Notes: generated from the sequence alone by a model not told the origin. A stretch of DNA of 64,000 nucleotides from a virus (IMGVR_UViG_3300011113_000415); one strand, 5' to 3'; shown: positions 9,088 through 32,908, numbered from the stretch's first letter. Made by a program: numbers and translations.

Positions 9088-10326
9088 ATGGAAAAAATTG
9101 GATTTATTGGGATTGGCAAATTGGGTCTCGATTGTGCCGAAGTCATGGCAGAAAAGCATGAAGTCAGAGGCTACGATATTTACCCACGAGTCAGTGACTC
9201 AGTAAAAGTTTGTGACATTGACGAATTGGTCAACGAAAGCGAATGGATTTTTATCGCTGTACCAACGCCACATGCAGAAGGCTATGATGGATCGGTTCCA
9301 TCAAGTCACATGGAACCTAGAGACTTTGGACACGACGCTGTGATTGACGCCATCAACAAAGTGAATACACATGCTTGTTCACCCAAAAAGGTTGTGTTGA
9401 TTTCCACAGTTCTGCCAGGAACCACACGCCGCAAGTTTTTTCCACTATTAGATCCTCAACATCAATTTTTGTACAATCCTTATCTTATTGCCATGGGATC
9501 GGTCAAATGGGACATGGTCAATCCCGAAATGATCATGATTGGCACAGAAGACGGTGCCTGGAACGGCGTGGCTGGCGAACTTAAAGATTTGTATGACACA
9601 GTGATGCAAAACAATCCACGTTATGAAATTGGCACCTGGGACGAGTGCGAATCAGTAAAGATATTCTATAACACATTTATTTCGGCCAAAGTTGGCCTGG
9701 TAAACATGATTCAAGACTTTGCATTACGTATTGGTAATATTGATGTTGATGTGGTCACAAATGCACTGGCACGAAGCACCATGCGTATCATGGGCCCCAA
9801 GTACATGACAGCCGGCATGGGCGATGCAGGTGCTTGTCATCCTAGAGACAACATTGCCTTGCGCTGGTTGGCAGAAGAATATGACATTGGTTATGATTTG
9901 TTTGACACCATCATGTATGCTAGAGAAATACAAGCAAAGAATCTTGCTCACTTTTTGGTTGATCAAGCCAAAGAACGCGGCATGAGTATTGTGATTCACG
10001 GCAAAGCCTACAAGCCCGATGTACCTTATTGTATTGGATCTTATTCTACCTTGGTTGGACACTATGTTAAAGAAGCAGGGTTTGGTGTGCGATATCTCGA
10101 TCCATTAGCAGATGATCCTACAGAAGTTATTTCTGAATTGGTTGGACCAGTTGTTATACTGTGGGCACACAATCGTAAAATCACGTATGAATACACCGGT
10201 GATCAACCTGATACACTGCCTTATTGTGCTATTCCTCAAGGTTGTGTGATTGTTGATCCATGGCGTAAACTTCCCCAGATTGAAGGACTGACTGTGGTCC
10301 ACTATGGCAACACCCGTAAAAAATAA
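9088..10326 (+). CDS. ugd: UDP-glucose/GDP-mannose dehydrogenase family protein
   Basis: GIGKLG Rossmann motif, IAVPTP, NPYLI, catalytic-type GACHPRD, GKAYKP. Confidence 0.88.
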   Translation: MEKIGFIGIGKLGLDCAEVMAEKHEVRGYDIYPRVSDSVKVCDIDELVNESEWIFIAVPTPHAEGYDGSVPSSHMEPRDFGHDAVIDAINKVNTHACSPKKVVLISTVLPGTTRRKFFPLLDPQHQFLYNPYLIAMGSVKWDMVNPEMIMIGTEDGAWNGVAGELKDLYDTVMQNNPRYEIGTWDECESVKIFYNTFISAKVGLVNMIQDFALRIGNIDVDVVTNALARSTMRIMGPKYMTAGMGDAGACHPRDNIALRWLAEEYDIGYDLFDTIMYAREIQAKNLAHFLVDQAKERGMSIVIHGKAYKPDVPYCIGSYSTLVGHYVKEAGFGVRYLDPLADDPTEVISELVGPVVILWAHNRKITYEYTGDQPDTLPYCAIPQGCVIVDPWRKLPQIEGLTVVHYGNTRKK

Positions 10327-12287: not shown

Positions 12288-13316
12288 ATGACTGCTAGAA
12301 TTGGTTTTTGTTGTAAATGGCTCAATGATCCTTCAGAATGCGGGGGCATGAAAGTCAATGCAAAAGATCGTGATCTCAACGGCAGATCAACTACCATGCG
12401 TTGGCTTCGTGAGCACCCTGAAGATGCTGATCAGCGCCAATGGGATATTATGAACCACAATGCCTCAGCCGCGGTGCGATTGATTGAGCGTGTGGCTACC
12501 TTGCCCGAGGGTCGTAGAATGGTACGACTTGGTAGTGAGATGCTACAAGGCTACACTGAACCCAATTGGATTGACTGGTGGCAACGCACAGAAATACAAG
12601 ATCATTGTGCAAAAATTTTTGCACCTGTTGGCGAGGCCGCTAGACGGCTGGGTGTGCGACTGAGTTTTCATCCTGGACAGTTTTGTGTACTGGCCTCAGA
12701 ATCGGACGAAATCGTAGAACGATCAATCTTGGAATTTGAATATCATGTGGACATGGCTCGTTGGATGGGCTATGGTAAGACCTGGCATGATTCGGGATTC
12801 AAGATCAATGTGCATTTATCGGGCAAAGGTGGTCCCGCTAAATTCTTGCAGACACTAGGGCGACTCACGCCTGAAGCAAGAAACTTGATAACCATCGAGA
12901 ATGACGAGATGACAAATGGATTGGACACTACTTTGGCTGTGGCTCAGCATGTGGCTCTTGTGTTGGATTTGCATCATCATTTTATCATGACTGGGGAATA
13001 TATTTCGTCAGATGATGATCGAATTTCTTATATTGTTGACTCTTGGCGCGGTGTCCGTCCTGCACTTCATTACTCACTGAGCCGAGAAGATGAGTTGATT
13101 GACCATGATTCTAAAATTCGACCGAATCTTTCTGAACTTCTGGCCATTGGTCATAAGAAGCAAAAACTTCGAGCACATTCAGACTTTATGTGGAACAATG
13201 CATGCAACGAATGGGCCCTTACTCATTTAGATTGGGCAGATATCCAAGTTGAAGCAAAAGGAAAAAATCTAGCGAGTCAACAATTATTTGAGTTCTGGAA
13301 AGGCCTTGAAAAATAA
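12288..13316 (+). CDS. uvsE: UV damage endonuclease UvsE/UVDE
   Basis: RLSFHPGQF, NVHLSG, IENDE, LDLHHH, HYS, RAHSD, VEAKGK. Confidence 0.92.
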   Translation: MTARIGFCCKWLNDPSECGGMKVNAKDRDLNGRSTTMRWLREHPEDADQRQWDIMNHNASAAVRLIERVATLPEGRRMVRLGSEMLQGYTEPNWIDWWQRTEIQDHCAKIFAPVGEAARRLGVRLSFHPGQFCVLASESDEIVERSILEFEYHVDMARWMGYGKTWHDSGFKINVHLSGKGGPAKFLQTLGRLTPEARNLITIENDEMTNGLDTTLAVAQHVALVLDLHHHFIMTGEYISSDDDRISYIVDSWRGVRPALHYSLSREDELIDHDSKIRPNLSELLAIGHKKQKLRAHSDFMWNNACNEWALTHLDWADIQVEAKGKNLASQQLFEFWKGLEK

Positions 13317-13451
13317 ATGTGTTCGATTTTTCAACTTGAAGCAGACTCCTCTACCAACACCTAACTGAATAGATACTTGGTCTGCTGAAATTCCTTTGTT
13401 AAAATAACCTGGCCAGCCAACAGTTGTACGACCAAGCCAATAAATAATCAT
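13284..13451 (-). CDS. Possible small protein (55 aa)
   Basis: Manually translated MIIYWLGRTTVGWPGYFNKG...; fills an otherwise empty gap; no SD. Confidence 0.3.
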   Translation of the reverse strand: MIIYWLGRTTVGWPGYFNKGISADQVSIQLGVGRGVCFKLKNRTHLFFKAFPELK

Positions 13452-13464
13452 TTAAGGAGCCAGC

Positions 13465-13761
13465 ATGCGTGAATTTGCGCTGGCGTTCCTATTTTGCTTG
13501 ATCAGCACCATAGCCAACGCTCAAATCAACCTAGACAAACCAGTATACTGTGATTCTGCCACAACAATATTGCAGATAATAAAAGACCGATACCGAGAAA
13601 CACCAGTCTGGATAGGCAGTCAAAGCAGTGGTATCATAATGTTGACCTTGAACGAAACCACACAGTCCTGGACCTTGCTGGAACTCTATGATGAATTGGC
13701 CTGCATACTTGGCACAGGAAAAGCATTCAACACTATGCAAAAAACACGCCCTGTTCTGTAA
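13465..13761 (+). CDS. Secreted hypothetical protein
   Basis: AAGGAG SD, signal peptide, two Cys. Confidence 0.75.
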   Translation: MREFALAFLFCLISTIANAQINLDKPVYCDSATTILQIIKDRYRETPVWIGSQSSGIIMLTLNETTQSWTLLELYDELACILGTGKAFNTMQKTRPVL

Positions 13762-13790
13762 CAAAATTGTAACACACTTTGGCCTAAATA
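13756..13790 (+). promoter_or_regulatory. Pho box plus late-type -10 upstream of pstS
   Basis: CTGTAAC-AAAA-TTGTAAC (11 bp period), then 11 nt, then TAAATA (13785-90). Confidence 0.75.
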
Positions 13791-13812
13791 ATTGTCTAAC
13801 AAGGAGATTCTA

Positions 13813-14814
13813 GTGAAACAATTATTTGCAATCGTATTAGCGGCATTGACATTATCAGCGTCAGCACAGATCACAGGTGCTGGTGCAACATTTCCATACC
13901 CCATCTACTCAAAGTGGGCAGAACTTTATAACCGGGAAACTGGCGTAACACTCAACTATCAATCCATTGGATCCAGTGGCGGCATTCGTCAAATTGATGC
14001 TAAAACAGTCACCTTTGGTGCCAGTGATGCACCTGTTGCCGGAGACAAGTTGGCCGCAAACGGTCAAGTACAATTTCCAGCAATCATTGGTGGTACAGTT
14101 GCTATTGTTAATTTGGATGGTTTCAAACCAGGCGAACTACGTATCACAGGGCCTGTATTAGCAGAAGTATTTTTAGGCGAAATCTCTAAATGGAATGACC
14201 CAAAGTTAACAGCACTTAACCCGGGTAAAAAATTACCTGACTTGGAAATTACTATTGTGCATCGTGCAGACGGGTCTGGAACAACATTCAACTGGACAGA
14301 TTATTTAACAGCAGTAAGTACCAAGTGGGCTGAGAAGGTAGGTAAAGGTGCCGCAGTCAAATGGCCAGCAGCCTCATCAGTGGGTGGCAAAGGCAACGAA
14401 GGCGTGGCCGCCAACGTACAACGTGTTAAAGGCTCAATCGGCTATGTTGAATATGCTTATGTTAAAAAGAACAACTTGACTTTCTTGCAATTGCAAAATA
14501 AGTCAGGCAAGTATGTTAGTCCAGATGACCTAACATTTGCTGCCGCGGCAGCAGGTGCTGATTGGTTCTCAGTCCCTGGTATGGGCGTGAGTATTGTGGA
14601 TCAAAAGGGCGATACTGTATGGCCCATAAGCACAGCCAGTTTCATCATCATGTACCGAGATCCCGCAGACAAAAAAGCCAGCCAGGACGCACTAAAATTC
14701 TTTGACTGGGCATTCAAGAATGGTAAGAAAGCCGCAGAGGAATTGGATTATGTAGCATTACCTGATAGCCTGACCCGACAAATTCGCGAGCGGGTTTGGA
14801 GTCAGATTAAATAA
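13813..14814 (+). CDS. pstS: Phosphate ABC transporter substrate-binding protein PstS
   Basis: ITGAGATFPYPIY, YQSIGSSGG, HRADGSGTT, IGYVEY; GTG start after AAGGAG. Confidence 0.97.
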   Translation: MKQLFAIVLAALTLSASAQITGAGATFPYPIYSKWAELYNRETGVTLNYQSIGSSGGIRQIDAKTVTFGASDAPVAGDKLAANGQVQFPAIIGGTVAIVNLDGFKPGELRITGPVLAEVFLGEISKWNDPKLTALNPGKKLPDLEITIVHRADGSGTTFNWTDYLTAVSTKWAEKVGKGAAVKWPAASSVGGKGNEGVAANVQRVKGSIGYVEYAYVKKNNLTFLQLQNKSGKYVSPDDLTFAAAAAGADWFSVPGMGVSIVDQKGDTVWPISTASFIIMYRDPADKKASQDALKFFDWAFKNGKKAAEELDYVALPDSLTRQIRERVWSQIK

Positions 14815-14860
14815 ACAAACCGAGTGCAACGATAGAGTACTGCTGGAACTCGTAACCAGC

Positions 14861-14892
14861 AAATACCCCATTTTTTTTGGGGTATTTTTTTT
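14861..14892 (+). terminator. Intrinsic terminator after pstS
   Basis: AAATACCCCA/TGGGGTATTT stem followed by T-run. Confidence 0.75.
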
Positions 14893-14917
14893 GTACGTAA
14901 CGATTATAAATATCTGT

Positions 14918-15082
14918 ATGAGTTGGTTCAAAAGAATACCGCACAGATATCCACCCACAACTGCCGCACCCACACCCTATAGGTCCAGCCCTGCTACAGA
15001 TCTAGCACTGGAACAAGCCAAAGCGACCCGCCCAAAATCTCGTAAAAAATCAGTCAAAAAACACCCACTAAATAAGGGATGA
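14918..15082 (+). CDS. Small basic hypothetical protein
   Basis: ATG 5 nt after TATAAATA (14905-12). Confidence 0.55.
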   Translation: MSWFKRIPHRYPPTTAAPTPYRSSPATDLALEQAKATRPKSRKKSVKKHPLNKG

Positions 15083-15723
15083 AACCCACTATAGCACTGT
15101 TCCTACATCATCCTAGGACTTCGGTGCAGAGTGGAAACGCTGTAATGCAAGCCTTGCGTGAGCATTATCATTTCAAAATATTCACACGCCACGAACTCGA
15201 ATCCGAGTTCTTCAATGATGTAGACTGTGTGGCCTTTCCAGGCGGCATAGGCGATTCAGATTCCTATGACTGGTTGTTCAGAGTCAACGGCCCTGTGATA
15301 CGTAACTACATGGCTCGGGGTGGTAGATATCTTGGCATCTGTATGGGTGCTTACTGGGCAGACGCAGACTACTTTGACATACTAGATGGAGTGCGGGCAG
15401 AACAGTATATTCGAAGACCCGGCACAGACACACGTCGTCCACATGCCAAAGCAGCCAGCATAACTTGGCAAGGCAACCCTGAGCGCATGTATTTTTATGA
15501 TGGCTGTGCCTTGGTGGGTGACGAATCTAGATTTGAAACTGTGGCCAGATATGCCAATGGTGATGCCATGGCCATCATACAAAATCGTGTGGGCCTGATT
15601 GGTTGCCATCCTGAAAGTGTTGAGTTTTGGTACGACAAGAGATATTTAAAACAACATTGGCATCATGGTCGCCATCATCAATTGTTACTAAATTTTGTAA
15701 ATCGATTATTTGTAACAAAATAG
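15079..15723 (+). CDS. Class I glutamine-amidotransferase-like (BPL_N-type) protein
   Basis: FPGGIG, GGRYLGICMGAY, CHPE. Confidence 0.8.
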   Translation: MKPTIALFLHHPRTSVQSGNAVMQALREHYHFKIFTRHELESEFFNDVDCVAFPGGIGDSDSYDWLFRVNGPVIRNYMARGGRYLGICMGAYWADADYFDILDGVRAEQYIRRPGTDTRRPHAKAASITWQGNPERMYFYDGCALVGDESRFETVARYANGDAMAIIQNRVGLIGCHPESVEFWYDKRYLKQHWHHGRHHQLLLNFVNRLFVTK

Positions 15724-15744
15724 TCACATGATTTTGCCTAAATA
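15710..15744 (+). promoter_or_regulatory. Pho box plus late-type -10 upstream of plcP-like gene
   Basis: TTGTAAC-AAAA-TAGTCAC, then 11 nt, then TAAATA (15739-44); same geometry as pstS. Confidence 0.65.
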
Positions 15745-15748
15745 CAGC

Positions 15749-16534
15749 ATGCTGAAAACGTATCGCAGTATTTTTATCAGTGACGTACATCTAGGCACAA
15801 GAGATTGCAAGGCAGAAGAACTCAACAACTTTCTAAAACACAACTCATGCGATACCTTGTATCTTGTGGGTGACATTATAGATGCCTGGAAAATTCAACA
15901 AAACAAATGGCGATGGAAACAAACCCACACCAATGTTGTCCGTCGTGTGCTAGGTCATGCCAAGCGCGGTACTCGTGTGGTATTCATAGCAGGCAATCAC
16001 GACGAGTTTTTAAGACCAATGATACCATATGGATTCAGTTTTGGCTTGATAGAAATTGTCAATCAAACTGAACACATAGGTGTAGATGGTCGGCACTATC
16101 TTGTGGTGCATGGTGACCTGTTTGATGGTATCACAAGACTAGCACCGTGGATTTCATTCTTAGGAGATCGAGCATATGACTTTATTCTTGCGCTTAATAG
16201 CCGATTCAATTGGCTACTGCATCGTTTTGGTATTGGGTACTTTAGTCTTAGCCAGTACCTTAAAAAGCGAGTGAAAAAAGCAGTAGACTTTATTTTTCAC
16301 TTTGAAAAAAATCTAGCCAGTTACTGTCGAAAGCGTGGCTACGATGGTGTTATATGTGGACACATACACCACGCAGAAATAAAAGAAATAGATGGCGTGG
16401 TCTACATGAATGACGGAGACTGGGTAGAGTCATGCACTGCCCTGGTAGAACATCACGATGGACGATGGGAGATTGTAACATGGACACGAAGAAATGACAA
16501 AGAAGATATTAATGGTCACGGACAATGTTCCTGA
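15749..16534 (+). CDS. plcP: PlcP-like phospholipase C (LpxH-like metallophosphoesterase)
   Basis: FISDVHLG, LVGDIID, AGNHDEF (His-type, unlike GNRD of E. coli LpxH), HGDLFD, CGHIH, YMNDGDWVESCTAL; next to a GT4 gene. Confidence 0.75.
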   Translation: MLKTYRSIFISDVHLGTRDCKAEELNNFLKHNSCDTLYLVGDIIDAWKIQQNKWRWKQTHTNVVRRVLGHAKRGTRVVFIAGNHDEFLRPMIPYGFSFGLIEIVNQTEHIGVDGRHYLVVHGDLFDGITRLAPWISFLGDRAYDFILALNSRFNWLLHRFGIGYFSLSQYLKKRVKKAVDFIFHFEKNLASYCRKRGYDGVICGHIHHAEIKEIDGVVYMNDGDWVESCTALVEHHDGRWEIVTWTRRNDKEDINGHGQCS

Positions 16535-17501
16535 TCAAATAAATGGTGTCAACACAACTTATCAAAATATCGAGAAGTATGCAATTTTGGATGATTATAT
16601 TATCCATACTCTTCATCCCGGGTGCTTCCGCTACATTGATTGTCCTAAATATAACGAAGTCAAACTTGCCATTCCAAGCAAGATGGGACAGAAGATTGAG
16701 GAGATATCTCCGGATTATATACACATCCAAACAGAAGGTCCTCTTGGTCTGTGGGCTAGAAAGTATCTTTCAATATGTGGTTATAGGTACAACACCGCTT
16801 ATCATACTAAGTTTCCTGAAGGGCTAAAGAAACTGTTTGGTATTCCTGAATTGGTGACATGGCCTCTAGTGCGTTGGTTTCACAAACACTCAGGCAAAGT
16901 GTTGACCACAACTGATAGCATGGTAGCGGAATTGCGCTCACATGGATTCCGGGGCGAAATTGTGTCATGGACACGTGGAGTTGATCGTGAGATATTTCGA
17001 CCCGAACTCAGACAAAACTTTCCTGCCAAGTATTTACTGTGCGTAAGTCGTGTGAGCAAGGAAAAAAATCTAGAAGCATTCTTGGACCTGGACTATCCTG
17101 GCTATCAAAAAATCATGGTAGGTGATGGCCCCATGTTGGAAACATATCGCGAACAGTATCCCGATGTCACATTCTCCGGATTCAAAACAGGTACGGAACT
17201 TGCTAGATATTATGCCAATGCTGAAGTATTTGTATTTCCCAGTCAATGGGAAACATTTGGTATTGTCATGATCGAAGCCATGGCCTGCGGAACTCCAGTG
17301 GCTGCTTATCCCGTTCAAGGTCCGGAGGATGTTGTAGATGAAGGCGTGACAGGTTGTTTGAATTCCAATCTCAAGCAGGCAGTTACTGATTGTTTGTTTT
17401 TAAATAGACAACAGGTATGGTCTGGCAGCCAACGTTGGTCATGGCAACGTGCGTGGGAAATATTCAGAGACAACCTAGTTCCAGCAAAGCCACAAAAATA
17501 A
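16494..17501 (+). CDS. GT4 glycosyltransferase (Agt-like glycolipid synthase)
   Basis: VTDNVPDQINGV, HIQTEGPLG, YHTKFPE, RVSKEKN, ETFGIVMIEAMACG. Confidence 0.8.
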   Translation: MTKKILMVTDNVPDQINGVNTTYQNIEKYAILDDYIIHTLHPGCFRYIDCPKYNEVKLAIPSKMGQKIEEISPDYIHIQTEGPLGLWARKYLSICGYRYNTAYHTKFPEGLKKLFGIPELVTWPLVRWFHKHSGKVLTTTDSMVAELRSHGFRGEIVSWTRGVDREIFRPELRQNFPAKYLLCVSRVSKEKNLEAFLDLDYPGYQKIMVGDGPMLETYREQYPDVTFSGFKTGTELARYYANAEVFVFPSQWETFGIVMIEAMACGTPVAAYPVQGPEDVVDEGVTGCLNSNLKQAVTDCLFLNRQQVWSGSQRWSWQRAWEIFRDNLVPAKPQK

Positions 17502-17555
17502 ATTACTCATATTGTGTGTGCTTTTATTTTTAGCACCCAAGTTTAAATACTGTCT

Positions 17556-17696
17556 ATGAGCAGTATTTTTGAAGAACTGAATGATCTTATAACTAAGTCA
17601 TCAGTAGGCAAGGTATTGGGAGTCACTTTGATGGTCCTTGTTTTCTCTGGAGCCGTTGCTCTTGGTTTTGCCTATTGGATAACCCACAGGCATTGA
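17556..17696 (+). CDS. Small membrane protein (46 aa)
   Basis: Manual translation; one TM helix; ATG 6 nt after TAAATA. Confidence 0.5.
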   Translation: MSSIFEELNDLITKSSVGKVLGVTLMVLVFSGAVALGFAYWITHRH

Positions 17697-29747: not shown

Positions 29748-29972
29748 ATGAACAATTGGGACCGAGGAAATTTGGACTTTATTTTAAATTCCACCGAGGA
29801 AGACCTAGCAGACTTTTTGTCCTGGGCCACAGATGAAGACCTAGCGTATGCACTGGAACTGCTTCAAACAGCCCGTGCAGAACTCACAACCAAGGAACTT
29901 GAACTGCTAGACAGCGAAACAGTAGAAGATCTATCACAAGCAAGAGCCATACTAGAAAGATTTCGTCTATGA
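29748..29972 (+). CDS. Hypothetical protein
   Basis: 74 aa; AAAGGA SD; upstream TTGACA. Confidence 0.7.
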   Translation: MNNWDRGNLDFILNSTEEDLADFLSWATDEDLAYALELLQTARAELTTKELELLDSETVEDLSQARAILERFRL

Positions 29973-31042
29973 AAATACGACTGATAGGCAAACGCAACAA
30001 TTTGGGTATTGGTACCCATTTTGCCGCTTTTGCAGACGCCCTCAAGCGAATCAGCCACTGGGGTGCCTGTGTTGAAGAGTTTGATTGCGAGGATCCTGCA
30101 AGACTTCAAGCAGAGGCTCAGGTCAGCAAGTCCGGTGACATCAACATCTGCTTTGTAAGCATACCCTTGCAGGATCATTTTCAGGGCACCAATATTCAAT
30201 GGGTGGTGTTTGAAAGTACTCTAGTGCCGCCCACAGTGATGAGCACCATGATAACCGCAGATCAAGTGTGGGTGCCCAGTTCATGGGGACGACACACATT
30301 GATCGCCAACGGACTGGACCCGGCACGTTGTGAGATCATACCAGAAGGTGTTGATGCTGATCAGTATCATCCTTATGCACCCAGAGTTGACAGTCCGGTC
30401 ATGACCTATCTAATTACTGGCAAGTACGAACTGCGGAAAAGTATCATTGAAACTGTGCTGGCCTGGAGCCAAGAGTTTGGTAATGATCCTGATGTGGAAC
30501 TGGTGATCAAGACCAATCACTTTTGGCACCAAGAAGCCAAGTACAACGAACTGGCCAACTACATTGGTCAACTGGGCTTGACCAATGTGCGAGTGATCTG
30601 GGGTAGCACTGCTCCTGAAGACATGGTCAATCTCTATCAGCAGAGTCATGTGTTTGTGTTGCCCACCAAAGGTGAAGGTTGGGGACTGCCACTTATCGAA
30701 GCCGCGGCTGTGGGTCTACCCATTATCACAACCTGGCACAGTGCTCACACAGAATTTTTACAACACATACAATCCAGTGTGGTGGTAGTGGAGCATGATA
30801 TGACTCCAGTCAACTGTCAAGAGTATCAGTTGTTTTATCCCACAACAGATGGCAATTGGGGTTCCTGGGCACAACCCAGAATTGACAGCATTAGGGCGGC
30901 CTTGAGATCCAGTCGTCAAAATTACACATACCTGCACCGAAGAGCCAAAGAAAATAGTGTGATCATACGCCGGACATTTTCCTGGGCCCAAAGTGCTGAT
31001 CGTGCCCTGCAAACCCTGCAAAAGCATGGGTTACTAAAGTAA
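29969..31042 (+). CDS. GT4-family glycosyltransferase
   Basis: GKYELRKS, FVLPTKGEGWGLPLIEAAAVG. Confidence 0.88.
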   Translation: MKIRLIGKRNNLGIGTHFAAFADALKRISHWGACVEEFDCEDPARLQAEAQVSKSGDINICFVSIPLQDHFQGTNIQWVVFESTLVPPTVMSTMITADQVWVPSSWGRHTLIANGLDPARCEIIPEGVDADQYHPYAPRVDSPVMTYLITGKYELRKSIIETVLAWSQEFGNDPDVELVIKTNHFWHQEAKYNELANYIGQLGLTNVRVIWGSTAPEDMVNLYQQSHVFVLPTKGEGWGLPLIEAAAVGLPIITTWHSAHTEFLQHIQSSVVVVEHDMTPVNCQEYQLFYPTTDGNWGSWAQPRIDSIRAALRSSRQNYTYLHRRAKENSVIIRRTFSWAQSADRALQTLQKHGLLK

Positions 31043-32476: not shown

Positions 32477-32908
32477 TTACTTGTAGATGTAGTTGATGGT
32501 GTCAGGATTTTCTCTGTAGACACCAGCACCATTTTTTAAATGAAAGCGTCGAGCCATTTCGGTCTTGGGGCTTAGTGTAACATAAGTGTCAATGCCGGGG
32601 AACTCTTGCTTGATACTTTTTTGTGTTTCCACAATCAACTCACGCCCTGCCCCTGCTGTGTAACTCCAAATGGTGTAAAATACTGCGGTAGTAGCACTCC
32701 CTACCAACTCGGCTAAGTCATCCACCGCCTCAGGAATAGACTGCAAGAACTTGACACAGGTCACTGCTTGGGTTTGGTCCCCATCCTTCAACATATAGAT
32801 TCTGCTGTTCTCGTTCACACGTCGGGCCACAGGGATTTCAGGACGTACGGGATCGTCCTTGATCAGGGTTTCTAAATCCTCGGTGATGGTGGTGATGGTG
32901 TGTAACAT
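32477..32908 (-). CDS. Hypothetical protein, possibly GNAT-like
   Basis: AVFYTIWSY..GAGRELI...TLSP...RRFHLKNGA pattern. Confidence 0.6.
   Translation of the reverse strand: MLHTITTITEDLETLIKDDPVRPEIPVARRVNENSRIYMLKDGDQTQAVTCVKFLQSIPEAVDDLAELVGSATTAVFYTIWSYTAGAGRELIVETQKSIKQEFPGIDTYVTLSPKTEMARRFHLKNGAGVYRENPDTINYIYK

Follow-up and report, generated by a model that had tools for sequence, protein, structure and literature searches.

In the 64,000-nt stretch of DNA analysed here (hereafter the window), which derives from a freshwater jumbo phage of roughly 335 kb, a gene for a phosphate-binding protein is followed by a pair of genes assigned to the PlcP and Agt families, the two enzymes of the bacterial pathway that swaps membrane phospholipids for sugar lipids, and both units lie behind phosphate-starvation (Pho) boxes. 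A phage origin is supported by relatives in IMG/VR, by virus-fraction metagenomes that hold the stretch, and by the 334,901-bp contig. Every element listed in the preliminary description, namely pstS, an LpxH-like phosphoesterase with a GNHD motif overlapping a GT4 glycosyltransferase, and Pho-box-like repeats with an 11-bp period before each unit, was found to be present.

Two transcription units behind Pho boxes

The first unit encodes PstS, the periplasmic phosphate-binding protein of the PstSCAB transporter, in an ORF at 13792/13813-14814 (+), where the likely start is the GTG at 13813 with an AAGGAG Shine-Dalgarno sequence 7 nt upstream. The product scores 403.9 bits against the NCBIfam PstS equivalog NF008171 (cut-off 339) and 366 bits against TIGR00975, matches PHROG 5385 ('phosphate transporter subunit') with an E value of 7e-64, and carries a hydrophobic N-terminal signal peptide ending in an Ala-x-Ala site (…LTLSASA/QITGAGATF). 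An intrinsic-terminator-like hairpin with a 10-pair stem (14861-14887), followed by a T-run (TTTTTTG) that extends the element to 14895, closes the pstS unit. Between pstS and the esterase lies a 214-aa BPL_N/class-I glutamine-amidotransferase-like ORF of unknown role (15079-15723, +; Pfam BPL_N, 35.4 bits), whose Atlas clusters are 100% viral. In many IMG/VR loci it lies 650-680 nt upstream of plcP, while no tblastn hits to it were obtained in the 80 bacterial plcP loci compared. With this ORF and the hairpin, neither of which was mentioned in the preliminary description, pstS and plcP-agt are separate transcription units.

The second unit begins 935 nt after the pstS stop with a metallophosphoesterase ORF at 15728/15749-16534 (+; Pfam Metallophos), whose start was set at 15749 by alignment with relatives. 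It is overlapped by a GT4 ORF at 16494-17501 (+), which hits Pfam Glycos_transf_1 and Glyco_transf_4; the overlap is 41 nt, or 23 nt if the start is 16512 as in the database record P0125.

Each unit is preceded by an 18-nt Pho box of the TGTAAC-N5-TGTAAC type. Box 1 (TGTAACAAAATTGTAACA, 13757-13774, +), with two TGTAACA half-sites 11 bp apart, lies before pstS and is followed by a 10-nt spacer and TAAATA at 13785-13790, while box 2 (TGTAACAAAATAGTCACA, 15711-15728, +) lies before plcP-agt, overlaps the stop codon of the upstream ORF, and is followed by a 10-nt spacer and TAAATA at 15739-15744. These are the only exact matches to the shared 18-mer pattern in 64 kb on both strands. With a looser pattern, only three hits were obtained in the window, all of them just upstream of a gene start; the third (box 3, 32971-32954 on the minus strand, with TAAATA at 32943-32938 after the same 10-nt spacer) precedes an ORF at 32477-32908 (-). 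This ORF encodes a 143-aa GNAT-like protein of the malonyl-CoA decarboxylase C-terminal domain type (Pfam PF05292, 29.1 bits; Atlas clusters all viral and carrying MCD/Acetyltransf_1), which is a candidate third member of the phage's Pho regulon with unknown function. Together, the three sites fit TGTAA(C/T)-N5-(T/A)GT(A/C)AC with exactly 10 nt to TAAATA, which is consistent with the PhoB consensus of two 7-bp direct repeats resembling CTGTCAT with an 11-bp period (PMC8528852), placed as a Pho box appears to be in E. coli pho promoters, in place of the -35 element and about 10 bp upstream of the -10 element. The geometry is identical in three of the loci compared (L001, L004 and L006), and the box upstream of plcP has the same spacing in 25 of 80 IMG/VR loci. 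In addition, 22 of 80 bacterial plcP loci have such a box within 200 nt upstream, against a background of 0.008 per 230 nt.

Assignment of the esterase and the glycosyltransferase

While JGI and GenBank records name homologues of the esterase UDP-2,3-diacylglucosamine hydrolase, and virome surveys list viral 'lpxH' under LPS biosynthesis, several lines of evidence place it with PlcP rather than LpxH. The best NCBIfam match is indeed LpxH, but the score is 50.8 bits against a cut-off of 134 for NF003743, and 38 bits against 190 for TIGR01854. The esterase is 58% identical (E 3e-93) to the protein encoded at the P. aeruginosa PA3219 locus, whereas identity to E. coli LpxH is 24% over 125 aa in the N-terminal half only (E 7e-7). 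For comparison, characterised PlcPs share only 46-47% identity with each other (PMC8528852). In a maximum-likelihood tree, LpxH is separated from the clade that holds the phage protein with 100% SH-aLRT support; clustering with LpxH, which the preliminary description had named as a refutation of its reading, was thereby tested and did not refute it. Interestingly, one Pseudomonas genome holds a true LpxH (333 bits) and, separately, this paralogue (53.6 bits), while the Bradyrhizobium genome searched has the paralogue but no match reaching the LpxH cut-off.

The metal-ligand motifs (DxH, GD, GNHD, H, GHxH) are all present, and D19, H21, D49, N90, H91, D92, H128, H212 and H214 are invariant in 28 family members, as is the G89-N90-H91-D92 motif as a whole. 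LpxH structures show GNRD at the aligned position, whereas P. aeruginosa PlcP has GNHDEFLR, as the phage protein does. An AF2 model (pLDDT 87) has LpxH with its helical lipid-binding cap as its nearest solved fold in all 25 best PDB matches, indicating the same superfamily and predicted fold, a calcineurin-like metallophosphoesterase core plus this cap. As far as sequence can go, the reading of the module as an LPS/lipid A biosynthesis auxiliary is refuted and is regarded as very unlikely; the esterase is assigned to the PlcP (phospholipase C) family and is presumably Mn-dependent.

The 335-aa GT4 is 39% identical to P. aeruginosa Agt1, and 35-44% identical, over its full length, to the GT4 that lies directly downstream of the plcP homologue in 55 of the 80 closest bacterial loci retrieved. 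Members of this clade have been reported to share less than 25% identity with other GT4 enzymes (10.1101/2021.03.25.437072), and the window's other GT4 lies on a branch of length 10. The catalytic His104 of GTcp corresponds to H104 in AYHTKFPE, its DAG-binding Thr162-Arg163 to T160-R161 in SWTRGVD, and Trp residues occur in RWSWQRAW near position 316-322, where GTcp has Trp320; these motifs are conserved across the bacterial and phage homologues. The EKN motif is also kept (VSRVSKEKN), with Ser-Arg-Val-Ser instead of Gly-Arg-Val-Ala. However, the phage clade has FPSQWETFG or FPSKWETFG, with Glu in place of the catalytic Asp256 found in FPSxTDTFG, and the D256E change lowered GTcp activity by more than 90% (10.1101/2021.03.25.437072). 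Most bacterial plcP-linked GT4s have Asp at this position, but about a dozen in the alignment also carry Glu.

It is also possible that the esterase and the glycosyltransferase act on non-lipid substrates, for example by hydrolysing a nucleotide-sugar or a nucleic-acid-linked phosphate and glycosylating phage DNA or virion proteins. Phage glycosyltransferases often modify DNA or the O-antigen (PMC7029224), the GT4 also hits Pfam 'GT4-conflict' at 26.3 bits, and an alternative GT2 found in relatives has no known lipid role. This reading is considered improbable given the full-length identity to the plcP-linked Agt clade and the conservation of the residues equivalent to the DAG-binding His104 and Thr162-Arg163.

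Distribution in phages and relation to known systems

At least 593 IMG/VR contigs carry an 81-93% identical PlcP. Of the 80 best loci, 76 carry a glycosyltransferase directly downstream of plcP, 2 more have a GT4 one gene away, and 2 are too short to tell. In 42 of the 80, however, a 239-aa GT2 takes the place of the GT4, and it has no counterpart in the 80 bacterial plcP loci. The phage clades of both proteins are monophyletic, with 100% support for that of the GT4, and are not nested in any one bacterial group. A recognisable Pho box lies upstream of plcP in only 32 of the 80 related loci, and in many relatives the pair may therefore be expressed regardless of phosphate status.

These observations raise the alternative that the pair remodels the host membrane in every infection for a purpose other than phosphorus economy, such as superinfection exclusion, resistance to membrane-active agents, stabilising the envelope of the infected cell, or supplying lipid for a phage compartment, with phosphate release as a by-product. 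The presence of PlcP next to a glycosyltransferase in essentially every informative locus looks like a lineage core function rather than a patchy auxiliary gene, and glycolipid formation has been shown to change polymyxin sensitivity in P. aeruginosa (PMC8528852). Against this, both units in this phage carry Pho boxes of identical geometry, pstS is adjacent here, in 8 of 80 relatives and in Pelagibacter phage Mosig, and the phage lives in lakes and rivers, waters that are probably often phosphorus-limited. This alternative is considered unlikely, although less so than the two above.

Among the closest known systems is the bacterial PlcP-Agt lipid renovation pathway (S. meliloti SMc00171; Phaeobacter MED193_17359; SAR11 PB7211_983/960; P. 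aeruginosa PA3219/PA3218), in which PA3219 and PA3218 have been shown experimentally to be PlcP and Agt1 (PMC8528852), and for which a plcP-agt operon with a Pho box has been described (PMC4796936). The phage shares the two protein families, their order and the upstream Pho box, and its identities to P. aeruginosa PlcP and Agt1 are within or above the range among the characterised members themselves; it differs in being phage-encoded, in the fusion of the Pho box to a phage TAAATA promoter element, and in the GT4 substitutions described above. The same PlcP-family gene is carried by isolated phages, as Mosig_00120 of Pelagibacter phage Mosig (47.5% identity), which is divergently adjacent to pstS with 11-bp-period TTAACA repeats between the two genes, and a 'UDP-2,3-diacylglucosamine diphosphatase' of Synechococcus phage S-SRM01 (38%). 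Both are T4-like Kyanoviridae, not members of this jumbo-phage lineage, and no glycosyltransferase is annotated next to the gene in either. As in the cyanophage pstS/phoA auxiliary genes under host PhoBR control, a phage-encoded PstS is preceded by a Pho box, and the inferred logic is the same, with the host's phosphate sensor driving phage genes for phosphorus acquisition. The host here, although unknown, is probably a heterotrophic freshwater betaproteobacterium rather than a cyanobacterium, with Burkholderiaceae suggested only by the 72% identity of PstS to that of a Burkholderiaceae MAG. No paper describing the phage-borne module was found.

A predicted phosphate-starvation module

The preliminary description had inferred that the phage both imports phosphate and mines the host membrane for it, and this interpretation is supported and is regarded as probable, although no activity data exist for any phage copy, and the enzyme activities, PhoB control, release of usable phosphate and any effect on superinfection are inferred. 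In this model, two transcription units each sit behind a hybrid promoter in which a PhoB-type Pho box lies 10 nt upstream of the phage's own TAAATA element. PstS would plug into the host PstCAB transporter to raise phosphate uptake. PlcP would cut the phospho-head group off PE, PG or PC to leave diacylglycerol, which the Agt-type GT4, a predicted diacylglycerol glycosyltransferase, would glycosylate with a UDP-sugar to give phosphorus-free glycolipid. No phage phosphatase that would free Pi from the head group was seen in this window, and host phosphatases would act at this step. The module would add an internal phosphorus source, membrane lipids, to the uptake function, and the net effect in the infected cell would be the replacement of membrane phospholipid by glycolipid, such that the membrane stays intact while head-group phosphorus becomes available for replicating a genome of about 335 kb.

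Gene content of the pstS-plcP region and its phage origin

The region holds, all on the + strand, a UvdE-like endonuclease gene (12288-13316), a small ORF (13465-13761), pstS, a terminator-like hairpin, a BPL_N/GATase-like ORF (15079-15723), a metallophosphoesterase gene (15749-16534) and an overlapping GT4 glycosyltransferase gene (16494-17501). The UvdE-type UV-damage endonuclease gene (Pfam UvdE, 99.8 bits; PHROG 8420) lies just upstream of the module. The pstS product scores 403.9 bits against the NCBIfam equivalog NF008171 (cut-off 339) and hits PHROG 5385, 'phosphate transporter subunit', and its most plausible start is GTG 13813, which lies 7 nt after AAGGAG and gives a product that begins with a typical signal peptide. 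The esterase has the Pfam Metallophos domain, and alignment with relatives puts its start at ATG 15749, as had been proposed in the preliminary description. The glycosyltransferase has Glycos_transf_1 and Glyco_transf_4 domains and its gene overlaps that of the esterase by 41 nt, or by 23 nt if it starts at 16512 as in the database record P0125. Interestingly, the BPL_N/class-I glutamine-amidotransferase-like ORF sits directly upstream of plcP here and in many related phages, while it is absent from the 80 bacterial plcP loci that were compared.

Several lines of evidence point to a freshwater jumbo phage. The window's own GT4 is on record on a 334,901-bp contig, and close relatives of the esterase lie on contigs of 348-385 kb, which are full of small unknown ORFs plus eIF-1a-like, Sod, NifU and LysM-GH19 genes. 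IMG/VR holds at least 593 contigs with an 81-93% identical copy of the esterase; virus-fraction, lake and river metagenomes from several studies contain the stretch, with two independent runs containing contigs identical to it; and Atlas clusters for neighbouring ORFs are 100% viral. The phage assignment rests on these relatives, metagenomes, viral-only clusters and contig size; PHROG and Pfam searches of large ORFs in the window gave only weak 'virion structural protein' hits, and a DNA search of the phage collection with 13400-17600 gave no match, relatives being found only at the protein level. One RNA library shares words with the stretch, but it contains only contigs about 88-92% identical, which come from relatives and do not prove transcription. 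The PstS is 72% identical to that of a Burkholderiaceae MAG, although this is only a hint at the host. Some MAG records that carry close relatives of these genes have implausible organism labels, namely P0138 (named Haliscomenobacter sp.) and L030 (named Klebsiella pneumoniae MAG); the 18.5-kb 'Haliscomenobacter' contig encodes an 80%-identical phage-type GT4 and is probably a phage contig binned into a MAG.

Family assignment of the esterase and the overlapping glycosyltransferase

While homologues of the esterase are named LpxH in databases, several lines of evidence argue against that name and place the protein in the PlcP family. The protein scores 50.8 bits against the LpxH equivalog (cut-off 134), matches LpxH structures only over its N-terminal half at E about 1e-5, and is 24% identical to E. 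coli LpxH over 125 residues. In one Pseudomonas genome, the true LpxH (333 bits) and the homologue of the phage protein (53.6 bits) are separate genes. In a P. aeruginosa record the homologue is flanked by a tRNA-binding protein gene, a GT family 1 gene and an adenylate cyclase gene, an arrangement that appears to correspond to the PA3221-PA3217 region of the PAO1 map (csaA, cyaB), and the phage protein is 58% identical to that PA3219-locus protein. PA3219 is the experimentally supported PlcP of P. aeruginosa, and shares only 46-47% identity with the PlcPs of Phaeobacter and S. meliloti (PMC8528852). In a maximum-likelihood tree, three LpxH sequences are separated from all PlcP-like sequences with 100% SH-aLRT support on a very long branch, and the jumbo-phage copies form one clade with 100% support inside the PlcP family, not nested in any single bacterial group. 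The motif G-N-H-D is invariant in 28 diverse family members, whereas LpxH has G-N-R-D. An AlphaFold model of the phage protein (pLDDT 87) has the metallophosphoesterase core plus a helical insertion at residues 129-202, and its 25 best PDB matches are all LpxH, the lipid-binding member of the superfamily, which fits a lipid substrate. As no PlcP structure appeared among these matches, the fold search could only show the LpxH-like architecture.

The overlapping GT4 is of the Agt type. A homologue was found in 59 of the 80 closest bacterial loci, and in 55 of them the match runs over more than 300 residues, at 35-44% identity, directly downstream of the plcP homologue, which is the 'type 2' plcP-agt operon of Sebastian et al. 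(PMC4796936). The phage GT4 is 39% identical to P. aeruginosa Agt1 over 327 residues, where Agt1 itself is 41% identical to the Phaeobacter Agt (PMC8528852), and members of this clade are reported to share less than 25% identity with other GT4 enzymes. The phage protein has 335 aa, against 334 for GTcp, and keeps the catalytic His104 (AYHTKFPE), the Thr-Arg of the DAG pocket (SWTRGVD) and the EKN motif. It differs at one point, in that the phage clade has Glu where GTcp has the catalytic Asp256 (FPSQWETFG against FPSxTDTFG). About a dozen bacterial plcP-linked GT4s in the alignment also have Glu, although D256E reduced GTcp activity by more than 90%, such that the sugar specificity and efficiency of the phage enzyme are open. 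The phage GT4 clade is monophyletic with 100% support, and the window's second GT4 (29969-31042) is very distant. A UDP-glucose dehydrogenase gene (9088-10326, + strand; PHROG 9148, E 1.5e-82), lying about 5 kb upstream, could supply UDP-glucuronate, one donor of Agt-type enzymes; however, it sits in another operon, together with an amidinotransferase-like gene.

Pho boxes and the TAAATA element

The 18-mer pattern shared by the boxes at 13757 and 15711 has exactly two perfect matches in the window, directly before pstS and plcP, the box before plcP overlapping the 3' end of the BPL_N-like ORF. A looser Pho-box pattern gives three hits on both strands of the 64 kb, the third being at 32971-32954 (minus strand), 46 nt before a 143-aa GNAT-like ORF of the malonyl-CoA decarboxylase C-terminal domain type (32477-32908, minus strand). 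This ORF is found only in viral clusters, and may be a further member of the phage's Pho regulon and perhaps an acyltransferase. In all three sites the second half-site is followed by exactly 10 nt and then TAAATA, a placement that would match that of the Pho box relative to the -10 element in E. coli pho promoters. The same box, spacing and TAAATA precede plcP in L001, L004 and L006, which are loci of related phages, and in 25 of 80 IMG/VR loci, while 32 of 80 have the box. Among the bacterial plcP loci, 22 of 80 have such a box within 200 nt upstream, against a background of 0.008 per 230 nt. In two relatives (L004:6990-7722 and L005:1651-2383), a further Pho-box-like repeat (TGTAACATTACCGTAAC) lies at the 3' end of the GT4 gene, just before a 231-aa ORF for which no family match was found.

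TAAATA by itself is strand-biased, with 24 copies on + and 11 on - (for example at 2419, 13441, 15069, 53742, 54657 and 61225). Of the 24 copies on +, 17 are followed within 45 nt by a possible start of an ORF of at least 50 aa, and several sit immediately before clear gene starts that have no Pho box, for example at 2419, 15069, 53742 and 54657. It therefore looks like the phage's general promoter element, similar to T4 late promoters, and the three sites are hybrids of a PhoB site, with PhoB binding inferred, and that element.

Distribution and proposed role of the module

Of the 80 best IMG/VR loci, 34 have the GT4 directly after plcP, 42 have a 239-aa GT2 there instead, 2 have the GT4 one gene further on, and 2 are too short to tell; PstS lies within 6 kb in 8 of the 80. 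The GT2, also seen at L001:6907-7626 (and, among the 42, in for example L114 and L122), hits Pfam Glycos_transf_2 and Glyco_transf_21 (27.0 bits, cut-off 21.7), while NCBIfam gives nothing specific and no homologue is present in the 80 bacterial plcP loci; it could be an alternative diacylglycerol glycosyltransferase or something else. Outside this lineage, Pelagibacter phage Mosig (MT647606; L008:3903-5738) has a 47.5%-identical copy, annotated as LpxH, divergently next to its pstS, with TTAACA-N5-TTAACA repeats of 11-bp period in the 150-nt spacer, a pairing that appears not to be discussed in the genome announcement (PMC7892664). Synechococcus phage S-SRM01 has a 38% copy, and a 595-kb uncultured phage has a 26% copy.

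In the best-supported reading, in which the activities, the regulation and the benefit to the phage are inferred from family assignments and architecture, the host PhoB activates the phage promoters under low phosphate, and PstS raises uptake through the host PstCAB transporter. PlcP would then remove phospho-head groups from membrane phospholipids and the GT4 would cap the resulting diacylglycerol with a sugar, so that the membrane stays intact while phosphorus is released for DNA synthesis. The main alternative is that the pair is a constitutive membrane-remodelling function of the lineage, which draws on the near-universal conservation of the pair and on the absence of a recognisable box in over half of the relatives.

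The enzymes and the pathway are known from bacteria, and phage pstS is also known, but no paper describing a phage PlcP-Agt was found among the open-access papers and bioRxiv preprints searched. Phage phosphorus genes known so far act on uptake and scavenging from outside the cell (pstS, phoA, phoH), and this module would add an internal source, the host's own membrane, using a pathway so far described only in bacteria. The hybrid promoter of Pho box plus TAAATA offers a clean, testable case of a host stress regulator grafted onto a phage promoter. The module is abundant, with at least 593 viral contigs plus isolated SAR11 and Synechococcus phages, and it is systematically mis-annotated as LpxH, such that virome studies list viral 'lpxH' under LPS biosynthesis.

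If the module is active, infected cells would change their membrane composition. A broader reading, which we consider about as likely as not, is that a whole lineage of freshwater jumbo phages, with hundreds of IMG/VR contigs, carries phospholipid-to-glycolipid conversion as a near-core function, where in each infection the host membrane is stripped of phosphorus to pay for a genome of 335-385 kb and expression is wired to the host's PhoB through the hybrid promoters. Many viral 'lpxH/LPS' auxiliary genes reported in virome surveys would then really be PlcP, and viral infection would be a driver of glycolipid formation in phosphorus-poor waters.
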